DNA of 32,000 nucleotides from Candidatus Harpocratesius repetitus (GTDB lineage Archaea; Asgardarchaeota; Lokiarchaeia; Sigyniarchaeales; Promethearchaeaceae): the NCBI GenBank assembly GCA_021498095.1, contig JAIZWK010000001.1:450001-482000 (forward strand), given 5' to 3'. Of the stretch, positions 875 through 14,820 are shown one piece after another. Each line of letters starts with the position of its first letter. Within the stretch, counting starts at the first letter, position 1. The position numbers were made by a program, and so were the translations under genes. Below the pieces are notes generated by a model. The model had not been told where the DNA came from, searched no databases, and saw only the letters and a program-made list of their open reading frames with translations.

Positions 875-1110
875 GAATTCGACATAATTATGATTGTATA
901 TATTTGCGAAGGAAATCGAAGTATGACTATATTCTAGGAGAAATACAGATAACAATCAAAATTTGGGGGATTATATATACTCTTTCCATGAGTAGTCAGT
1001 TAAATCGTGGTATAACTTCGTTTTAGGATGCTTTTCTGAATGTCAATTCATTTTAGAGAAGAAGAGCAAATCTATAATCTTTTTTGAAAGAAATACAGGA
1101 GGATAAAAAA

Positions 1111-1371
1111 ATTAGGATTGTCACTTGTAATGTTCCAATAACGTATTTAACCGCAATTGATAAATTGATCACCTCCGGCAATCATCAAGGACTATATCCT
1201 TCTCGTTCTGAATTGATAAGAATAGCTGTGCGAGAGTTCTTGTTAAAGGAATTAGAAGCAGCTAAGGAGTTTGAAAAGTTAAAATTTCAATCAAGAAATA
1301 AAGATGAGATAATAACTGAATCAAAAGAGATTAACCAACCAGCTATATTAAAAAAAATAAAAACACCATAA
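1111..1371 (+). CDS. Ribbon-helix-helix (CopG/Arc/MetJ-like) transcriptional regulator, paralog 1; probable ATT start at 1111 (ORF track uses TTG 1084)
   Basis: IRIVTCNVP (beta strand), ITYLTAIDKL (helix A), LYPSRSELIRIAVREFL (helix B). GGAGG at 1098-1102 lies 8 nt before the in-frame ATT at 1111. Confidence 0.8.
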   Translation: MRIVTCNVPITYLTAIDKLITSGNHQGLYPSRSELIRIAVREFLLKELEAAKEFEKLKFQSRNKDEIITESKEINQPAILKKIKTP

Positions 1372-1534
1372 TATTTAATACAATAGCCAGTCTTTGCTGA
1401 AACGATTTAAATATTTACTTTTAAAGCTAGATAGCTTTAAATAGTTGACGCTTTTTCCAAAATTGATAAATTATTCTTTCTTCTGACATTTATTATCTAC
1501 TTAATACTAGATAATTTTCTATTAAAACAAAAGG

Positions 1535-1542
1535 ATTATATA
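1535..1542 (+). promoter_or_regulatory. Putative TATA box for RHH gene 2
   Basis: ATTATATA followed by ACATAATTA (1551-1559), the same arrangement as upstream of RHH gene 1. Confidence 0.4.
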
Positions 1543-1766
1543 GAAGTGCAACATAATTAACTATAGTTATTAATTCGATAATCTCGGAAAGATAACAATC
1601 ACCCTTTTACAGGATAGTGTGTTTATCATACTAGGGGAGAGTAGGATACATCAAATAAGTGAAATCATCAATATATTACCTTAACTTAAAACGTGGGTCT
1701 TGCATTTTAACACACAATTCTGTAGATTGAAGTAATGGTATTTCAACATAATAGGAGGAATAACTA

Positions 1767-2060
1767 ATTCGCATTATTACCGTTAATTTACCTGTATCAT
1801 ATCTTAAGGCTATAGATTCACTCACTGGCCAAGAAGGATTGTATCCTTCACGTTCAGAGTTAATTCGTGTAGCAGTAAGAGATTTTTTAATTAGAGAACT
1901 TGAAACTGCAAAATCGTTTCAAAAGTATCAACAAACCCAAGTACCAAATAAGATCACTCATAAACCACTCGATGAAAATATGTTTGTTCAAGTTCCCGTT
2001 AATGAAAATTCAATTAATGGAGTTACTGAATACAAAACCTACCGATTAATAAAAAAATAA
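1767..2060 (+). CDS. Ribbon-helix-helix regulator, paralog 2; probable ATT start at 1767 (ORF track TTG 1839 removes half the domain)
   Basis: The frame upstream of 1839 reads IRIITVNLPVSYLKAIDSLTGQEGLYPSRSELIRVAVRDFL, colinear with paralog 1. In-frame TAA at 1761-1763; GGAGG at 1754-1758; ATT at 1767. Confidence 0.8.
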   Translation: MRIITVNLPVSYLKAIDSLTGQEGLYPSRSELIRVAVRDFLIRELETAKSFQKYQQTQVPNKITHKPLDENMFVQVPVNENSINGVTEYKTYRLIKK

Positions 2061-2235: not shown

Positions 2236-4038
2236 ATGAATAACACTTCTTCCCAGATTATCGCTAAAATTGAGGGAAAAACGACTCCATTTGGATTTAA
2301 AATTCGTTTTGAATCCCAGATTCCACGCAAAGCATTTCTAGCTGCAACTCATGGAGAAAAAACGTATATCTTAACAGTAACTAATGTTTGGAATAATGAA
2401 AAGGGTAAATATGGAGAATGCCAGATTATTGGAAATCCTCCATTAACACCATTTCCATTAGATTCAAAAATAAGAAGGGCTCTTCCTGAAGAGATTAAAA
2501 CAGCCATAGGAATGGATACACCTAAAGAAAAAGCGTTGTATTTAGGAGAAATATTTGGAATTCCAGGATTATTAGCAACACCAAATGTTGAAAAACTAGG
2601 TCGAGTTTTTATTACAGGAAAATCTGGCTCTGGAAAATCTTACACTGTTGGCGTACTTATTGAAGAATTAATGAAAAAGCATGTTCCAATAATTATCATT
2701 GATAGACATGGTGAGTATTCATCATTAAAGATTTTAGATGAAACAAATATTCCTGATTCAGAAACCTTTTTCAAAAAAAATGATCCTAACTATACTTTTA
2801 GGAAGCATATTTTAGAATTTGCTGAATTGACATACAATCCTCAAGCAGATTTAGATTTAAAGTATCTTTCAGTTATACAAATGAAGGAATTAATACTACC
2901 AGGTCAATGCATTACGGTTAATTTACGAGGAGTAGATATTCCTATTCAAGAAAATATTATCCAACATTTTCTGGCCAAAATTTATAAAGCCAGTACATTG
3001 AGAGAGATTCCACCACTCTTCATCTTTTTAGATGAAGCACACCTATTTGCTGGAAAAAAATCCAGTAGTCCTCTTGAAACCGTAAAAAGAATTGCCCAAG
3101 AAGGTAGAAAATTTGGTTGCAATTTGGTGGTAATAACTCAAAAACCTCAAGCTTTGGATACTACAATTCGAGCTCAAGCAGGAACTTGGATTATCCATAA
3201 GCTTACAGATATTAACGATATTCGCATCACTACAAGTTCAGCTGAAGGCTTAGATACGCATGATGAGGAGGAAATTCAAAACTTAATGCCGGGAGAAGCA
3301 ATTATCACAGGTGATATCACCCCATTTTGCCCAATTCAAGTAAAAATACGAAAACGTTATACAATTCATGGTGGAACAGGAACAAGCATATTGGAAATTT
3401 TAGGAAAGGAAAAAGAAATTATCCGTTCTGATTTAATCAATAAATTTCGCGAGAAATATACAGAAGAAATTGTGGAAGATGCATCAAAAGAAATTTATCA
3501 AGGTGTTCAGTTATCTACAACTGAATTATTTAATCAAATAGACAATTTACGCCAAAAAAATTACGAATTACAGACAGAAATCAAAAAATTAAAAGAAAAG
3601 CAAGCAGAATTTTTAGAACAATCAAAGTATTCAATGAAACAATCTAAATCTGATGATAATATCCCAGAAGCAAGTGAATTAGCTCATGAAATAGACAAAG
3701 TTCTTACAGATTTGGAAAAAAACACGAATCAATCTACTTCAATAAATCTTCCCAAGCCAGAAGAAATGTATGATGAGAAAATGCTTGAATTAATGGGGGA
3801 ACGAGATGATTTAAAAGCAGAACTCGAGGAAAAGAACAAAATTTTGGAATCAATGAAAAGCAAATTAGATCAAATGATAGAAAAAGTTCAAACATTTGAA
3901 TTAGAAATGTCTGGAATTAAAGTAGAAAATCAAAACCTAAAAGACAAAGTAAAAGCAGAGCAAAAACGAGCAGATGATGCAGTGCAGTTAGCTGAACGAG
4001 CAGTTCAAGCGATGAAAAGAAAAGGAAAATATCGTTAA
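2236..4038 (+). CDS. HerA/FtsK-superfamily (DUF87-type) ATPase with C-terminal coiled coil
   Basis: Walker A GKSGSGKS, IIIIDRHGEY, Walker B FIFLDEAH, QEGRKFG (arginine finger), VITQKP. The last ~170 aa are E/K/Q-rich heptad-like sequence. Confidence 0.85.
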   Translation: MNNTSSQIIAKIEGKTTPFGFKIRFESQIPRKAFLAATHGEKTYILTVTNVWNNEKGKYGECQIIGNPPLTPFPLDSKIRRALPEEIKTAIGMDTPKEKALYLGEIFGIPGLLATPNVEKLGRVFITGKSGSGKSYTVGVLIEELMKKHVPIIIIDRHGEYSSLKILDETNIPDSETFFKKNDPNYTFRKHILEFAELTYNPQADLDLKYLSVIQMKELILPGQCITVNLRGVDIPIQENIIQHFLAKIYKASTLREIPPLFIFLDEAHLFAGKKSSSPLETVKRIAQEGRKFGCNLVVITQKPQALDTTIRAQAGTWIIHKLTDINDIRITTSSAEGLDTHDEEEIQNLMPGEAIITGDITPFCPIQVKIRKRYTIHGGTGTSILEILGKEKEIIRSDLINKFREKYTEEIVEDASKEIYQGVQLSTTELFNQIDNLRQKNYELQTEIKKLKEKQAEFLEQSKYSMKQSKSDDNIPEASELAHEIDKVLTDLEKNTNQSTSINLPKPEEMYDEKMLELMGERDDLKAELEEKNKILESMKSKLDQMIEKVQTFELEMSGIKVENQNLKDKVKAEQKRADDAVQLAERAVQAMKRKGKYR

Positions 4039-6993: not shown

Positions 6994-7080
6994 ATTTTAC
7001 TAGAGCGCGCAAAGCTAATATTTATTGCTATGAATAATGAAAAATTATTAGTAGAATTTCAATTCAAAACAGAGGACATA

Positions 7081-8064
7081 ATGGTGAGAAAAAAGAAACA
7101 ATTTTGCTTAATTATTTCATTAATTTTAGGAATGAGTGTGTTATTTTCCAATTTTTCGCTTATTCGAGCTCAACAATCACAGCAATCTATTGAAACAGAA
7201 TTTAAACCAGGGAATGTTTTTCTCTATAAAAATGAACATTATGATTTAGATAGCCATGGTAATCGATTTCATAATATAACTAAGTGGAGTGAAATCAAAA
7301 TTGATGATATTATATCAAATACGAGTTTAGGAACCACAACTGTAATATTTTCGAAATATGATGCAAATAATGTGAGTTTAGAGGAAATTGAGCAAAATCC
7401 AGATGTCCTCCAGTTTGGATTTCAAACTCCTTTACCCTTTGGTGGGTTTACTTTAGGTGTTATCAATCAGAGCCAACCTTTAAGCAAGTATCAAGTTCTT
7501 TTTAATGAAAAAAATGCATCCATGCAGGATGTTACTTCCGATATACTGATAAATGGGCAGTATAGGATATTTTATTTAAATGAATTGGGATATTTCGATA
7601 CAAAAGTAAATGAATACTCCCAAAACAACGAGGTTAAATATTATAATCTCGAGGGTATCATTCAGAATCAAAGAGAGAGGACATTGCTTGCTACTTTAGA
7701 CGGTGATGCAAATATCTTATTAAACGGGAGTACATACCCAAATCATTTAGCATGGTATAATATATCATTAGATCTAAAATTATATTTGGTATACGGCCAA
7801 AAATCAAATATTCTACTTTCTTATAACATAAATTTCACTATTGCTGAACATTTTCAAGATATTAATACATTAGAAATTACCAATAGGTATCAACGTAAGA
7901 TAATCTTCTGGAATATTCGAAAACCAGATGAACTAACAAAAGATTATCCTATTTTAGAAGTTCTTGATCTACCAGAATTTAACCTAAATACTGTAGCCGG
8001 AATCTCATTAGCTTCTTTTGTTGCTTTGGTATCTGGAATATTTACTCAAAGGAGGCGTAGATAA
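7081..8064 (+). CDS. Secreted/cell-surface protein with C-terminal membrane anchor
   Basis: GAGG at 7072-7075 then ATG 7081; signal-peptide-like MVRKKKQFCLIISLILGMSVLF; C-terminal LPEF + hydrophobic helix + RRRR. Confidence 0.75.
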   Translation: MVRKKKQFCLIISLILGMSVLFSNFSLIRAQQSQQSIETEFKPGNVFLYKNEHYDLDSHGNRFHNITKWSEIKIDDIISNTSLGTTTVIFSKYDANNVSLEEIEQNPDVLQFGFQTPLPFGGFTLGVINQSQPLSKYQVLFNEKNASMQDVTSDILINGQYRIFYLNELGYFDTKVNEYSQNNEVKYYNLEGIIQNQRERTLLATLDGDANILLNGSTYPNHLAWYNISLDLKLYLVYGQKSNILLSYNINFTIAEHFQDINTLEITNRYQRKIIFWNIRKPDELTKDYPILEVLDLPEFNLNTVAGISLASFVALVSGIFTQRRRR

Positions 8065-8066
8065 AT

Positions 8067-11000
8067 TTGACATTTGAAATCACCTTTTCTGATATTCCTG
8101 TAATGTTAGTGTTTATGATTGCCTTCTTTTCAGCCATTTCATTATGGCAATTTATTGCAAAAGAATATAAAACTGCAATTCATGAAAGCTTTTTTGGAAA
8201 ATTGAATTATATTTTTTCAGGAATCTTTTTTATTGCCACAGGAACGCTTGTAATCACCTTTATCTCAGCATTAGTTATTTCTTCTTTGGCAATCAACACA
8301 ATTTTTGCCATTCAAGAAAGGAAATTAGTATATATTGATGCAATGGCGCGACCATGGCAATTTTCTCAATTGATTCCATTTGCTTTAATAGTACTCCTTG
8401 TCTTATCAATCATCTATGTGATTATTGAGTACTTTGCATTTTCAAAGCGTTCTCTTGAAGGCCCAATGGAAATTCAACAATATTTTGAACAAAAGATAAT
8501 TAAACGCGTTCCTTTTCCCTTTACGATTTTTTCAGCATTAGGATTTTTACTAATAATAATTGTTTTAATTCCATATTTGCTCAGTGAATTCTCAATATTT
8601 ATTATTAACCATCCAGAATCCTTGCTAACTCAATTTCTAAGCTATGATTTTGATTTTAACTATTTCTTCCCAGAAAATCCCCAATTATGGCAGCGAGTCT
8701 TTGTGTTTATACCTTATTTAATGCTTGGACCGATGATTTATTTAATTTATTACAGTACTTTAGGAAATTCCCAAATATTATTTCATAGTTTTCGAGTTTT
8801 AAGGACACCAAAATATCTAAGAAAGGTTAAACACTGGGGAATGATATTTGTATTGATATTAGGCTTATTATCACTTGTATCTTCAATTTATAGTTTGATT
8901 TCTGACTTTCCTATTCTTTGGGGCCAGTACTCAGATATTACTACAAGTTATAAGGATTTACAAGGAGGATTTTTAGAAAATCTTATTATGAATATTATGC
9001 GCGAGGTATTACATGTTGATCAAAGTGGATTAGATGATTTTAAATATTTTACATCAATAGTGCCCCTAGATTTTATACTATTTATCATTACTTCAGTAGG
9101 ATTTGGATTATTAGGTTTCTCATCCGAGTTTCTTAAAAAAGAACCTCTTAATCGCCCATTATTAGTTAAATTTGCTACATATATTTTAATAGGTATTGCA
9201 TTTAACATATTTCTCAATATTCTCACAACTTGGCCATGGGTACTTCCTGAAAATTTCCATTTCCTTACTCTTGAATTTTCAGATCCTGAATTTCAGAAAA
9301 TTGTTTTATTCTTCTTTGGTCCTTTGCTTGTTGTACAAAATATTTTAACGGTTTTGTTTTTAGTATATAATATTTTTGGCAATAAGCAGATGCGTTATCA
9401 AATTGATTTCAATGTTTTAAATGAGGCAATAAAAAATCGCGAATATCCAACTATAGAATTTTTAAGTCGCAATTCCAATCCAAATTTAAGGTTTATGGTT
9501 GTAAACAGCATATTGGAACAAATCGATGAATTAATTTTGATTCAAAAAGCCGAAAGTAAAGAAAAGGAAAAGATCTTGGATCCAACTCTTATAAAAATTA
9601 TACAAAATCTCTTAATTGACAAAGATATACGAATTCATCAAATAATTACTCATTTATTCGAAAAAATTGTTGATAATTGCACTATTGATGAAATACTTCC
9701 CTTAATTTCCACTATAACTTCAAACAAGGAAATAAATAATGATTTTCTGGCAGATTACGAGTCAATTTTGAATAAATTTACCACCAAGCATTCTTCTGAC
9801 TTAGAACGAATAATCAAAGAGTTATATCGCACTAAAATAACTACATCTGGAGAGCAATTAATTCTTTCATTTGTCAAAAACATCAGTCATATACATCCTT
9901 CTTCTCTTCAAAAAATTCTTATGCATCTACTTAATTCTGAAAATCCTTTCTTGCAAAAAGGTGTGTTTGATATTGTGGGTTCAAATTTGAAGATCTTATC
10001 TAACCAACTAGAAGAAATATTTGAGATTGGAATAAAATTGTACTCCCAGGCAGATTTTGCTTTGAAAAAATCAATTTTGACTGTTAATTCTCAGATTGTT
10101 ATTAAGAATTCAAGATTAATGGAAAGGTTTTTCAATACTTTTAATTTGGAAAAACTCTCCAAAGATGAAGAGAAATTGATCTTTTTAGGAGCAGCAATTC
10201 GAATTATGGGAGAAAAAAAGAACCAATTCGAATATATTTTGGAAAAAATTAAACCTTTAATGACAACTGAATCAGAATTTCTTCAAGAACAAATTGCAAT
10301 TTCTTTTGGGTCATTATTTACTTCGACAAGTTTACAGCATTACTTGGTCCATTTTCATCCATTTGCCTTACGCTTATCACAAGTGGAAAATCAGACAATT
10401 TTAGAGAATTTATTCTCCTCGTTTGATTTTATGATGAAAATTAATCCTGAAATAATAAAGAGCAATTTGTATATTAAGGGTTTATTTAACATTTTGAAGA
10501 ATAGTGAAAGAGATCTTAAGAAAAGAGTTTTGAATAGTCTTTCAAATATCCAAATATCAATTATTTTACCTAATATTGAGCAAATTATTGAAGATATTTG
10601 TGTCCCACTCATGAAAGGTCAAAAAAGATTGGATAATAAGGAAAGAGAGCTGTTAATTGCGTTAGAAGATTATTTTGCAGCAGTTGTTCCTAATAATGGA
10701 GAGCTATTCATTTCTTCACAGATTTATATAAATCTTTTATCCATCCCATGGAAAGAATTGAAACTTCAAAATTATATTACAGATTTATTCAAAATTGGTG
10801 CATTTGCAAACTTTGGATTTTTCTGTCGTTATTTGAGTTATTTTCAAACAACATCTTTACTACAAGAAGATATCCGAAAAAGATTAATATTTTCTATTAA
10901 AAGCCATTATGTAATTGCTTCACTTGATGAAAAAATCAAATCTCCCTTCTCAATTGAAAGTTCACTAATAGATTTACCAATATTTGGAGATCTAAGAAAG

Positions 11001-12749
11001 GAAAAAATAAAAGATGTTGCATCGATCATTGAAAAAGAATGTAATTATGATGTACTGAAAGAAGAAATCAATGATTTCTTGAGTACTAACTCGATCCACC
11101 TAATTCAAACAAGTTTAGATTTTATGTCCAAAATACTCGATTATATACCTCAAGAACATAAACTTTTTTATCCAAAAATTATAAAATTGATTTCAATTAA
11201 GGATGTAAATGTATATATATCAATAGTGAAAATTTTAGGGAAATGTGCGCATATCCAACCTGATTTATACATCCCTAAACATATTCAAAGGAGATATAAT
11301 AAAAAGCGAGTAAAAGATCAAATTGATCCTCAATTTTGGTCATATCAAATATTTCCATTAATCGTAAATGTTCTTTCACAGAAAAAATCAACCGATATTG
11401 AATTCATCTGGGATTTAATTGATTTCATCTTAGAAAACACTTCTGATATAATGATTTTTATAAAGTTTCTGAAAAATTCTCTGCAGAAATCAACCAATTC
11501 AGATGTGAAGGTTGCAATATTGAATGTTTTTCAAAAATTACCAGGTATTTACAAAGATAAAAGACTTTATTCTATTTTACTTAAATTAATAAAATCAAAT
11601 GATGAAAAAATAGGTCTTGCTGCTTTAAAATTATTATCAAATATGCTGGTTAGTGGATTGGAAATTTTAGAAAATATTAGATCGAGCCATAGTGATTATT
11701 CGCGTATAGATAAATCACTTCAACGTTTAATTGAGAATCAAATGGATAATTTCTTTAAAATTAAACCGAAACAATTATCTTCAATCGCACTAAAACAAGA
11801 ATACCTTAAAGTATTAGAGCAATTTATTCCTTTTTCCATCGAATTCAGTTATATTTTTGCATCTTTGGCGCAAATTCTCAAAGAAAAATCAGTTAATTTA
11901 ACTGAGAAAGCATTAAAAATAGCAATGAAAATAATATCAATTCATCCTCATGAGCTATTTATTGGAATAAAATTTTACCAAAAATCACTTTGGGTACCAG
12001 AAATTTCAACAAAAAAGCTTATTCTCCATCAAATTTCGAAAATATATAAAGAACAAATAATTAAAATCCCTAATTTAGAATCAAAGGAAAAGATAGTAGG
12101 ACAAATACTTTTTATAGTCTATAATTTTTCATATATTGAGGAAAAGGAAATAGATTCACAAATAATGAATTTAATTCATTCCATTTTCTTTGACTATCCT
12201 GATATGTTACCTAAATTTTCAGAGATTTTAATTAAAATAATAGAATATCAATACAGAAATAATTCATTCGATATTTTCTTTGAATATATAAATATATTTT
12301 TCAGCCATTTCGATCAATTAAAAACAACAGAGAAAAAGCTTCAAGTAATCAAGTTAACATATCGATTCAGCCGATACAAAAATGAGAATTTTGCATTGGG
12401 TGCAATTCAATATATACCCAAGATAATCAATTCTTTCCCTGCAAAAATATACACTGTATTGGGAATTTTATATAATTTTTGCAGAATTTCCAATTCTTCA
12501 GTTTTACTTAGGACTTTTTCCAGCTTTAATTCAATTATAGAAACAACTCCTGAATTGACAATTTCTATAATGAAAAATCTTCAAAAAATTCAATCAAAGT
12601 CTCAAAGTGTGGCAATTCATGATTATTTAGAGAAATTAGATGAGAAATATAAAGAAGAAACCAAAACCAAAGAAAAAAACAAATTGAACAAGAAAAAAAA
12701 AAGAATTGATATAAGATCAAAGCAATTATCTAAAAGGGAAAATGTATAA
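8067..12749 (+). CDS. 1560-aa protein: ~9 N-terminal TM helices plus ~1100-aa predicted alpha-helical (HEAT/ARM-like) region
   Basis: Long uninterrupted ORF; hydrophobic segments confined to about aa 10-440, the rest amphipathic and I/L-rich with no enzyme motif. The solenoid call is inference. Confidence 0.7.
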   Translation: MTFEITFSDIPVMLVFMIAFFSAISLWQFIAKEYKTAIHESFFGKLNYIFSGIFFIATGTLVITFISALVISSLAINTIFAIQERKLVYIDAMARPWQFSQLIPFALIVLLVLSIIYVIIEYFAFSKRSLEGPMEIQQYFEQKIIKRVPFPFTIFSALGFLLIIIVLIPYLLSEFSIFIINHPESLLTQFLSYDFDFNYFFPENPQLWQRVFVFIPYLMLGPMIYLIYYSTLGNSQILFHSFRVLRTPKYLRKVKHWGMIFVLILGLLSLVSSIYSLISDFPILWGQYSDITTSYKDLQGGFLENLIMNIMREVLHVDQSGLDDFKYFTSIVPLDFILFIITSVGFGLLGFSSEFLKKEPLNRPLLVKFATYILIGIAFNIFLNILTTWPWVLPENFHFLTLEFSDPEFQKIVLFFFGPLLVVQNILTVLFLVYNIFGNKQMRYQIDFNVLNEAIKNREYPTIEFLSRNSNPNLRFMVVNSILEQIDELILIQKAESKEKEKILDPTLIKIIQNLLIDKDIRIHQIITHLFEKIVDNCTIDEILPLISTITSNKEINNDFLADYESILNKFTTKHSSDLERIIKELYRTKITTSGEQLILSFVKNISHIHPSSLQKILMHLLNSENPFLQKGVFDIVGSNLKILSNQLEEIFEIGIKLYSQADFALKKSILTVNSQIVIKNSRLMERFFNTFNLEKLSKDEEKLIFLGAAIRIMGEKKNQFEYILEKIKPLMTTESEFLQEQIAISFGSLFTSTSLQHYLVHFHPFALRLSQVENQTILENLFSSFDFMMKINPEIIKSNLYIKGLFNILKNSERDLKKRVLNSLSNIQISIILPNIEQIIEDICVPLMKGQKRLDNKERELLIALEDYFAAVVPNNGELFISSQIYINLLSIPWKELKLQNYITDLFKIGAFANFGFFCRYLSYFQTTSLLQEDIRKRLIFSIKSHYVIASLDEKIKSPFSIESSLIDLPIFGDLRKEKIKDVASIIEKECNYDVLKEEINDFLSTNSIHLIQTSLDFMSKILDYIPQEHKLFYPKIIKLISIKDVNVYISIVKILGKCAHIQPDLYIPKHIQRRYNKKRVKDQIDPQFWSYQIFPLIVNVLSQKKSTDIEFIWDLIDFILENTSDIMIFIKFLKNSLQKSTNSDVKVAILNVFQKLPGIYKDKRLYSILLKLIKSNDEKIGLAALKLLSNMLVSGLEILENIRSSHSDYSRIDKSLQRLIENQMDNFFKIKPKQLSSIALKQEYLKVLEQFIPFSIEFSYIFASLAQILKEKSVNLTEKALKIAMKIISIHPHELFIGIKFYQKSLWVPEISTKKLILHQISKIYKEQIIKIPNLESKEKIVGQILFIVYNFSYIEEKEIDSQIMNLIHSIFFDYPDMLPKFSEILIKIIEYQYRNNSFDIFFEYINIFFSHFDQLKTTEKKLQVIKLTYRFSRYKNENFALGAIQYIPKIINSFPAKIYTVLGILYNFCRISNSSVLLRTFSSFNSIIETTPELTISIMKNLQKIQSKSQSVAIHDYLEKLDEKYKEETKTKEKNKLNKKKKRIDIRSKQLSKRENV

Positions 12750-13554
12750 CTTCTGAAATTTGATATATATATGGATAAGTTGGCTTAATTCCGGTTATGA
12801 TTGTATATATAATAAGAAATGCTAAATACCCAAAAATCATAGAGAGAGAGCATACATTAAACGGTTTTGTATGCTTCTTTGATTTGATCAATTGAATTAG
12901 TATAAGGATTAAAATGAGAATTAATAATCCGCTAAATACTAGTCCCCATTGACCTTCTATAAATCCAAAAGCATTTCCAATACCAATAAAAAAGCTCATT
13001 AATCGAAGAAGCTTATCTTTTTTGCTGTTATACTCATCTTTTGTGTCTATTTTTCGTTCCATCTTTAAAAAAAGGAAGATCATCATAAAATATCCCAATC
13101 CGGTAAAGAAATGAGAAGCAATTTCATCCCAAAAATATAATCCTAATTCTAATTGTTCTAATGTGGAATTAGGAGGGATAATTGTTCCTTCATCTATCAT
13201 TGAATGCATAAATTCATTAAGTTGATTGGCAACCATATGAGAAATTATTCCAAAATTATAGATAATCAAAAAAGTAATAAAAAGCGTTTTATACCAATTT
13301 CGCCAATAACGTTTTGTAGGAATTTGATCTTCTAGAATCTCAAAAACATGTAATGTATTTACTGAAAAGACAATACCCAGCAATAATATATCCATCAATT
13401 CAGCCAAATCCATAGAAAAGGAGACTTGTTTATTAAGTTCCGATATAACAAACGGTATGGTTACAACTGGAAGAAACAAACGATATATTATGGCAAATAA
13501 GAAAAGCAAGCCATATCCTCCATAAAAGAATGTAATGGTTTTACGTAATTCCAC
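12730..13554 (-). CDS. ~7-TM membrane protein of unknown function
   Basis: GTG start 6 nt after GAGGTG (rc of 13561-13566); seven hydrophobic segments. Confidence 0.75.
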   Translation of the reverse strand: MELRKTITFFYGGYGLLFLFAIIYRLFLPVVTIPFVISELNKQVSFSMDLAELMDILLLGIVFSVNTLHVFEILEDQIPTKRYWRNWYKTLFITFLIIYNFGIISHMVANQLNEFMHSMIDEGTIIPPNSTLEQLELGLYFWDEIASHFFTGLGYFMMIFLFLKMERKIDTKDEYNSKKDKLLRLMSFFIGIGNAFGFIEGQWGLVFSGLLILILILILIQLIKSKKHTKPFNVCSLSMIFGYLAFLIIYTIITGIKPTYPYIYQISEVIHFPF

Positions 13555-13695: not shown

Positions 13696-14820
13696 TTATT
13701 TACACCTATGCTCAAGATCAATTGGAGAGTAAGAACGAATAGCAAATTGTTTATCAATATAAATCAAGAAAGAATGCTCACATATTAATCCACTGGGAAC
13801 TTTAATTGATACTAGATTCTTTGGGTTTTGCGTTCTTTTTTCTATTAGAGAATCTGGAATTTCATAATAAAGGAATTTATAACATGTAGGACATTGGATT
13901 TGAATTGCAGGATGTTCTCCTGTCGATTTAGGCAAAGGCACCCAACCAATTGAACGAGAATTAAGAACTGCTGATTTTTTACTCATTATTTCGTTAATTT
14001 CTTTATCTTCAATATTATTTTCTTCTCTTTGATTTTTTTTTAACGTTTCTTCAGTAATTTTTTGGAACTTATTTGATTGTAATTTTGAAGGAATTACGAT
14101 ACCTAAATAGAAACCTGCAATACTTGTCATTCCAGAAATTACAGCAAGATAATAAAATACTGTATAACCAGAATAAAGATTAAACTCCCAATATAGAAAA
14201 TCAGCGAGAATAAAAAGAAATACTAAAATCATTGCATATTCAGCAATTAGAAAACCTATAAATCCATAACGTGCATATTTGACAGAAATTCTTCGGTATA
14301 CTTGAGAAGTTAGAATTACTGCTCGTCCAAATAGTAATATTGAATAAGCTAGCATCGCACAAGAAGAATAAAATCGAATATTATCAGATCCTTCCGATCC
14401 TGTAGGAACTCCATAATAATTCTGAGGTAGAATCACTAATATCGCAATAAAAATTCCAATTATAATATATTTCCATAAAAATTTCCAATTAATACCGAAA
14501 ATATCCTTTATAAAAAAAATAAAAAGCACGTGTCCAATAATAAAAAAGAAATAAGCTATACCCATTCCATATCTATAAATTTCCATCTTGTATCCTGTAA
14601 AGAATCCTTCCAATACTGATATCAAAAAACAAATAAATGCCAATAAATATGAAGAAAATGACCAGACTAGGTGGCGTACTGCAATAACTTTTCGAGTACG
14701 CCAACGATAATATAAGATAAAAACAAGAATGAGCACTTGTATAATAATAATAATATATAGAACAATTACAACAGGAATTTCCTTTTCAATTGGCTCAAAT
14801 TCAGAATTGGAAAAAATCAT
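13696..14820 (-). CDS. 7-TM receptor-like protein with C-terminal Cys/His zinc-binding domain
   Basis: Seven hydrophobic segments in aa ~15-245, a charged linker, then CPTC...GLICEHSFLIYID..AIRSY. Confidence 0.75.
   Translation of the reverse strand: MIFSNSEFEPIEKEIPVVIVLYIIIIIQVLILVFILYYRWRTRKVIAVRHLVWSFSSYLLAFICFLISVLEGFFTGYKMEIYRYGMGIAYFFFIIGHVLFIFFIKDIFGINWKFLWKYIIIGIFIAILVILPQNYYGVPTGSEGSDNIRFYSSCAMLAYSILLFGRAVILTSQVYRRISVKYARYGFIGFLIAEYAMILVFLFILADFLYWEFNLYSGYTVFYYLAVISGMTSIAGFYLGIVIPSKLQSNKFQKITEETLKKNQREENNIEDKEINEIMSKKSAVLNSRSIGWVPLPKSTGEHPAIQIQCPTCYKFLYYEIPDSLIEKRTQNPKNLVSIKVPSGLICEHSFLIYIDKQFAIRSYSPIDLEHRCK

Follow-up and report, generated by a model that had tools for sequence, protein, structure and literature searches.

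AUU is rare as a start codon in Escherichia coli, where two genes use it, while the A+T-rich genomes of animal mitochondria, Mycoplasma and Spiroplasma (NCBI translation table 4) start genes at ATT, ATA and ATC. In the AUU starts of bacterial infC, which encodes the initiation factor IF3, and of E. coli pcnB, a Shine-Dalgarno (SD) sequence stands at normal spacing, the codon is conserved among relatives and the product is an ordinary protein. Here we describe two tandem genes, gene 1 and gene 2, which resemble infC and pcnB in each of these respects and lie in a window of 32,000 nucleotides (nt) from the Asgard archaeon Candidatus Harpocratesius repetitus (contig JAIZWK010000001.1, forward-strand positions 450,001 to 482,000; plain positions below are those of this window). 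As in mitochondria, Mycoplasma and Spiroplasma, all three isoleucine codons appear to start genes in this A+T-rich genome and to interchange with ATG. We consider it probable, at about 0.75, that translation of genes 1 and 2 begins at AUU, and that this is an instance of lineage-wide use of AUU, AUA and AUC (AUH) starts and not a device peculiar to regulators. An ATT start has also been inferred for the Asgard tubulin AtubA of Kariarchaeaceae (PMC13394414), where, much as in gene 2, the first beta-strand lies 5' of the annotated ATG and an ATT stands at a plausible distance from a ribosome-binding site.

The source genome is closed, 4.36 Mb in size and 31% G+C, and shares its GTDB family with Promethearchaeum syntrophicum MK-D1. 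On their domain matches, considered below, both genes encode small ribbon-helix-helix (RHH; CopG/Arc/MetJ-type) DNA-binding proteins, and their elements, read from the sequence and its translation, are these:

947-958 (AGATAACAATCA) and 968-977 (TATA-like, GGATTATATA), forward strand: upstream blocks of gene 1, direct repeats D7 and D11
1084-1086, forward strand: alternative TTG of gene 1, in frame and stop-free, nine codons 5' of the ATT; considered unlikely as a start
1098-1102, forward strand: SD sequence GGAGG of gene 1, followed by eight nt (N8) and ATT 1111
1111-1371, forward strand: gene 1, predicted RHH protein of 86 amino acids (aa), putative start ATT 1111, stop 1369-1371
1754-1758, forward strand: SD sequence GGAGG of gene 2, followed by N8 and ATT 1767
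1761-1763, forward strand: TAA in frame with gene 2, two codons 5' of ATT 1767
1767-2060, forward strand: gene 2, predicted RHH protein of 97 aa, putative start ATT 1767, stop 2058-2060
1776-1778, forward strand: ATT taken as the start in gene call P0001 (94 aa, MTVNLP...), probably three codons too far 3'
1839-1841, forward strand: TTG, the earliest canonical start in the gene 2 frame, whose use would cost the beta-strand and helix A

Directly after ATT 1111-1113, gene 1 reads AGG ATT GTC ACT TGT AAT GTT CCA, or (M)RIVTCNVP, and after ATT 1767-1769 gene 2 reads CGC ATT ATT ACC GTT AAT TTA CCT, or (M)RIITVNLP. A preliminary description of this locus had reported the geometry GGAGG-N8-ATT at 1098-1113 and 1754-1769, which is exact, and had stated that the gene 2 frame holds no canonical start between the in-frame TAA and a TTG past the strand and helix A; this is also correct, as no ATG, GTG or TTG occurs before TTG 1839, which lies 24 codons into the gene. 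Taken alone, however, the arrangement says little. GGAGG-N8-ATT is found four times in the window against 0.91 expected, a statistically unremarkable count that 2 of 100 shuffles reach, and the two genes are not independent cases because they are tandem paralogs with 64% identity over the RHH domain. The motif count in tandem duplicates thus proves little, and the evidential weight lies in the comparison with other genomes.

For gene 2 that comparison is broad, with orthologs present in 60 of 61 related genomes. At the codon aligned with ATT 1767, the 80 species-level loci carry ATG (59), TTG (11), ATT (7) or GTG (3); genus-level relatives have ATT three times, ATA once (with an ATT one codon 5') and GTG once; and five further RHH paralogs in the same genome have ATG (MRLITVHLP, MKIVTINIP, MKLITLNLP, MKNITIALP and MKMLTVFVP). 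Among six close relatives, codons 2-9 (R-I-I-T-V-N-L-P) differ only synonymously (CGC/CGT/AGG/AGA, ATT/ATC/ATA, ACC/ACG/ACT/ACA, GTT/GTA/GTC, TTA/CTA/CTT and CCT/CCG/CCC/CCA), whereas the spacer between the SD sequence and the start shows no codon conservation and contains stops. No canonical start of gene 2 yields an intact domain, the SD sequence is at a normal distance, homologs carry a canonical codon in place of the ATT, and constraint begins just after it. Because ATT alternates with ATG, TTG, GTG and ATA at the aligned codon in orthologs and paralogs, as the preliminary description had predicted for orthologous loci, ATT 1767 is very probably the start codon of gene 2. In the close relative L240/L241 (1185-1215), the gene 2 start region reads ...AAATTCGTGAGA... 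vs ...AAATTCGTATA..., with a relic ATT and, 4 nt after it, a GTG now at the head of the same M-R-I-I-T frame; this looks like a start codon replaced in place.

Gene 1 has a narrower distribution, its orthologs occurring only within the family, and at its start position ATT, ATA or ATC is found in all of the at least 14 genomes examined, from at least four genera, and a canonical codon in none of them. ATT is present in this genome, in G001, in both g5 genomes (including the 6-Mb L. ossiferum-type genome), in three Promethearchaeum genomes (including MK-D1) and in g7; ATA in L238, L239, L240 and L015; and ATC in G002/L237. A G-rich SD sequence always lies 5' of the AUH codon, mostly with an N8 spacer and at about N8 in the closest relatives. 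Stops are close 5' of the codon in several orthologs (a TAA two codons before it in G001, stops one or two codons before it in L238, L016 and L015), and L239 and L240 have no canonical codon within the 22-23 open codons 5' of the start. Because TTG 1084 is without an SD sequence 5' of it and is not conserved in orthologs, ATT 1111 is the likelier start of gene 1. From the comparison of orthologs and paralogs, the central proposal of the preliminary description, that ATT is the conserved start of both genes, is very probably right.

The SD sequences themselves are uncommon. The 3' tail of the 16S rRNA is ...GGATCACCTCCT, and SD-like motifs do occur 5' of clean ATG starts genome-wide, with GGAGG peaking at a spacer of 7-10 nt and GGTGA-N6 as the commonest form. 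Perfect GGAGG precedes only about 4% of these starts, in agreement with a review that describes SD sequences as rare in Lokiarchaea (PMC12993045). Given this rarity and this spacer optimum, the SD sequences of genes 1 and 2 are unusually strong and optimally distant from their ATT codons, and the GGAGG(G) of gene 2 is retained in genus-level relatives.

AUH starts do not seem to be confined to these two genes. We scanned the genome for SD-positioned non-canonical codons that head long frames lacking a canonical start both upstream and over the next 12 codons or more, and ATT was the top codon. When 20 candidates were compared with Pfam, most domains began at profile positions 1-3 just past the putative start, with the first canonical start 12-91 codons in. 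Candidates from the genome, with their putative start codons, are:

TFE (TFIIE_alpha), G000:C1:926345 (+), locus L077: ATT behind GGTGA-N6; first canonical start 91 codons downstream
RpoA1 (RNA_pol_Rpb1_1, residues 9-314), G000:C1:1566379 (+), locus L084: SD-positioned ATC; first canonical start 26 codons downstream
Glycoside hydrolase 4 (GH4): ATT; first canonical start 12 codons downstream
NrdG-like radical-SAM activase: ATT; first canonical start 51 codons downstream
Isopentenyl-phosphate kinase (IPK; AA_kinase): ATT; first canonical start 70 codons downstream
MazF, two genes: ATT; first canonical start 30 and 37 codons downstream
PIN, two genes: ATA; first canonical start 23 and 81 codons downstream
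HepT: ATA; first canonical start 51 codons downstream
UPF0047: start codon not assigned; first canonical start 60 codons downstream

DRG (ATT) likewise has no canonical start for 42 codons, though Pfam is less decisive there, the first domain beginning at residue 66. A set chosen without regard to SD sequences, the 31 long frames whose first canonical start comes after 50 or more codons, added AIRS, TrmB (GGTGA-N6-ATC), a RAMP protein, a MerR-resolvase and a DUF4411 protein; several of the 31 are fragments or are fine with an ATG of their own, such as the actin gene. In start-less N-terminal regions, AUH codons have an SD sequence at the right distance 2.5 times as often as other codons (Fisher p = 0.0013). 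The same interchange of codons as in gene 2 is found in two core transcription genes: rpoA1, which has no canonical start before its conserved FGLLSPEEIRKMS block, has ATC in two genera, with ATT at the same position in Promethearchaeum and ATG or GTG in a different family of the order, and the TFE gene has ATT, ATA/ATC or TTG/ATG in relatives. Judged by Pfam boundaries, at least about 20 genes of this genome would need an ATT, ATA or ATC start, and the true number is probably higher.

Two frames are of a different kind. In L262 (G000:C1:3504846-3505304, +) a DUF4411 domain runs from residue 1 directly after a TAA (TAA TTT TCA TTC...), with neither ATG, GTG or TTG nor an ATT-type codon in reach, and its translation may be coupled to the upstream gene. 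L257 (G000:C1:3600215-3600910, -) covers only profile positions 73-273 of a GDP-mannose/dTDP-glucose dehydratase, right after a stop, and is probably a frameshifted or split gene and not a case of non-canonical initiation.

How might these starts work, and how did they arise? Pairing of GGAGG with the CCUCC tail of 16S rRNA would bring the AUU, which follows after 8 nt, into the P site. By analogy with known AUU starts, the initiator Met-tRNA would presumably accept it there as a near-cognate codon despite the mismatch at the third position. AUU, AUA and AUC appear to start many unrelated genes in this genome and in the order of MK-D1, and to interchange with AUG, GUG and UUG over evolution. 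The most likely cause, we suggest, is A+T mutation pressure (31% G+C) at the third position of ATG, together with initiation machinery in this lineage that may tolerate AUH codons behind an SD sequence. AUH starts probably lower the yield of translation, which could be harmless or even useful for low-copy regulators and toxins. Such a dosage-lowering role for regulators and toxins is plausible, although it has no easy fit with rpoA1 or TFE.

Several other explanations have to be set against an AUU start of both genes. That ATT is a misread ATG, or that the genes are decaying pseudogenes without a start codon, has nothing in its favour beyond the missing canonical start. Codons of the ATT type turn up again in genomes assembled independently and in contigs from other runs. 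ATT 1111 is intact in contigs of three such runs, one of them a 61-kb contig of 92% identity from another study. The proteins are also strongly conserved: 26 columns are invariant across the order, and the changes beside the start are only synonymous. We regard error or decay as extremely improbable, and the sequence error that the preliminary description named as fatal to its own proposal is excluded by the independent assemblies and other-run contigs. It is very unlikely that gene 2 instead starts at its third isoleucine codon, ATT 1776, even though an annotation pipeline chose it: this ATT is 17 nt from GGAGG, well outside the genome optimum, the ATG, TTG and GTG codons of orthologs and paralogs align with 1767, and purifying selection among relatives already acts on codons 1770-1775 (R-I). 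For gene 1, a start at TTG 1084 would yield 95 aa with a nine-residue extension and leave ATT to gene 2 only. This, too, is unlikely, since the perfect GGAGG would then fall inside the coding sequence of a gene whose TTG has none before it, the extension is interrupted by stops or lacks a canonical codon in the orthologs named above, and the closest relatives retain the SD-N8-AUH arrangement.

Some observations do weigh against our preferred reading, an AUU start of both genes as part of lineage-wide AUH use. The lack of any canonical alternative holds for gene 1 in most orthologs, but in this genome TTG 1084 is usable, being in frame with no stop before 1111, and the 92%-identical contig, which comes from an independent run, keeps it (1084-1086 is not among its listed differences). 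The gene 2 ortholog has an in-frame GTG two codons 5' of the ATT (GTG ATC ATT) in three of four Promethearchaeum genomes, and some gene calls take this GTG (MIIRIIT...); the start there is ambiguous and ATT not strictly required, though SD spacing would favour it. The proteins would begin M-R-I-(V/I)-T, with the initiating methionine assigned by analogy. The idea that a strong SD sequence compensates for a weak codon is undemonstrated, as SD complementarity does not differ significantly between AUH-start and canonical-start RHH orthologs (p = 0.085). Finally, the genome-wide count of AUH starts comes from Pfam boundaries in one genome.

A different kind of alternative, built on the proposal of the preliminary description, accepts the AUU starts and sees in them a selectively maintained control specific to the RHH regulator family, lowering dosage and responding to the stringency of archaeal initiation factor 1 (aIF1), much as infC responds to IF3. 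The constancy of AUH codons in gene 1 orthologs would fit such a control, as would the use of ATT by three of the eight RHH-type genes found in the genome, which is above the genome average, and the presence among other AUH-start genes of toxins (MazF, PIN and HepT), where weak translation is plausible. aIF1 is also reported to discriminate against non-canonical starts in Sulfolobus, as cited in PMC6237735. Still, unrelated genes of the same genome and its relatives use AUH starts, among them rpoA1, TFE, DRG, IPK and metabolic enzymes, and the starts are therefore not specific to the family. Gene 2 orthologs swap ATT, ATA, GTG, TTG and ATG freely, even within a genus, and genes 1 and 2, as duplicates, do not count twice. 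Only about four third-base changes are observed in gene 1, so that the absence of a change to G is statistically uninformative as to selection against ATG. We therefore find no support for a family-specific translational control, which we judge distinctly unlikely, nor for a sensor of aIF1 stringency, as this analysis found no link between the RHH genes and aIF1.

The aIF1 (SUI1) gene itself (L242, G000:C1:2952001-2952213, -) has TTG as its only canonical start before the zinc-knuckle motif, giving MPKDLVGICPKC..., and probably starts at this TTG, a weaker canonical codon for the very factor that polices start codons. It is tempting to go one step beyond lineage-wide tolerance and to suppose that AUU, AUA and AUC are regular, selectively maintained start codons of Promethearchaeales, Asgard relatives of eukaryotes that have been brought into culture, and are used by dozens of genes including rpoA1 and TFE as a result of heritably relaxed stringency of aIF1, archaeal initiation factor 2 (aIF2) and initiator tRNA (aIF1/aIF2/tRNAi). 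The AUH-start genes (the RHH pair, toxins and others) would then co-vary in output with that stringency. We offer this as a tentative idea and think it improbable.

Other candidate mechanisms were tried and rejected. A structured or SD-sequestering leader 5' of gene 2 is not favoured by the consensus fold of six relatives, which is weak (-3.35 kcal/mol) with a positive covariation term, and termination-reinitiation from an upstream open reading frame (ORF) ending at TAA 1761 fails because no ORF with a start codon exists in that frame. A special initiator tRNA was set aside as well: the one CAU initiator-type tRNA gene seen looks ordinary, with a GGG/CCC anticodon stem and a 3' end fitting A1:U72, in an ARAGORN survey that misses many intron-containing tRNAs here. 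On the whole genome, ARAGORN predicts 21 tRNA genes without introns allowed and 36 with introns allowed, and many tRNA genes must therefore have unusual introns. The predictions include a tRNA-SeC and one tRNA called with a two-base anticodon.

The assignment of the two proteins is based on profile matches. Gene 2 matches Pfam RHH_1 at 29.8 bits (cut-off 20.5), over residues 4-43 counted from the ATT, and RHH_8 at 28.7 (cut-off 25.4), and gene 1 matches the same two profiles below threshold (17.8 and 22.3 bits). The best named NCBIfam and PDB matches, CdrS of haloarchaea, aCcr1 of Sulfolobales and the N-terminal RHH domain of NikR, are like the two proteins in predicted fold and in size, but all three matches are far under the family thresholds, with CdrS at 24.1 and 26.1 bits (cut-off 100) and aCcr1 at 20.5 (cut-off 60). 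Gene 2 also differs from them at its C-terminus, where a conserved motif of its own, FV.VP...EYKTYK(I/L)VKK, is predicted as a hairpin. The AlphaFold2 monomer, whose mean pLDDT (predicted local distance difference test) is only 67, has residues 1-9 extended, helices at 10-23 and 29-57, and the hairpin at 73-77/89-93; the RHH strand pairs only in a dimer.

Both upstream blocks of gene 1 recur as direct repeats 5' of gene 2, at 1590-1601 and 1533-1542, and we infer that they are putative promoter sequence carried along in the tandem duplication. Genus-level relatives conserve a palindrome-like TTCGA-N5-TCGAA some 185 nt 5' of their gene 2 start (columns 19-34 of alignment A2); in the window it corresponds to about 1578-1593, where it is degenerate (TTCGATAATCTCGGA), and it could be an operator. 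The neighbouring gene is as follows:

2236-4038, forward strand: downstream neighbour, a HerA/DUF87-type P-loop ATPase (Pfam DUF87 and HerA_C)

This ATPase has a C-terminal coiled coil of about 170 aa, and the order RHH1-RHH2-ATPase is kept within the family, including MK-D1 and the L. ossiferum-type genome, but not around the gene 2 orthologs of other families. Elsewhere in the window, the ORF at 8067-12749 (forward strand, 1560 aa) has no Pfam match, and likewise the ORFs at 7030-8064, 12730-13554 and 13696-14820.

Having placed the likely starts, we can ask how existing gene models treat them. Public models of gene 2 and its orthologs disagree, giving 94, 97, 145 or 63 aa. The preliminary description expected annotation pipelines to truncate these genes, and some calls are indeed truncated (P0104, 63 aa; L240 gene 1, 77 aa), but others are over-extended (P0004, 145 aa) and several GenBank records are already full-length from ATT or ATA: QMYW01000220 and SPBL01000304 begin gene 2 at its ATT, and JBQSII010000006 has gene 2 from an ATT one codon 5' and gene 1 from ATA. 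For the two proteins, the result would fix the N-termini, an intact DNA-binding strand requiring the ATT start. More broadly, in Promethearchaeales genomes, standard gene finders limited to ATG, GTG and TTG would shorten or overlook a measurable set of genes, core transcription genes among them, and AUH starts missed in this way affect comparative work on the origins of eukaryotes. A strong SD sequence before AUU, for which sister species supply natural variants with AUG, GUG and UUG, is also a testable system for how strictly archaeal homologues of eIF1 and eIF2 select the start codon.

Set beside the systems with which we began, the locus shares the form of the infC and pcnB starts and differs in its setting, with archaeal machinery (aIF1, aIF1A and aIF2) and dozens of genes that appear to start at AUU, AUA or AUC. 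infC has a demonstrated autoregulatory loop through IF3, and none is evident here. Mitochondria, Mycoplasma and Spiroplasma offer the closer likeness in codon use, but they are organellar or bacterial-type, whereas initiation here would be SD-led in an Asgard archaeon. The AtubA case is a single-gene remark in a methods section, on another Asgard class, with no comparative or genome-wide analysis (PMC13394414), and beyond it we found no paper on systematic AUH initiation in Asgard archaea, in a literature search of incomplete coverage. Near-cognate initiation in eukaryotes, governed by the stringency of eIF1 and eIF5, involves homologous factors (aIF1 corresponds to eIF1 and aIF2 to eIF2) and codons of the same AUU/AUA/AUC type; there, however, it depends on scanning and Kozak context and usually gives minor isoforms or upstream ORFs, whereas in genes 1 and 2 an SD sequence positions the AUH codon, which would be the sole start of the principal protein. 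AUU starts are thus already known as a kind, to which the RHH pair adds a well-supported further case, and the more interesting point is the breadth of AUH use in the lineage.

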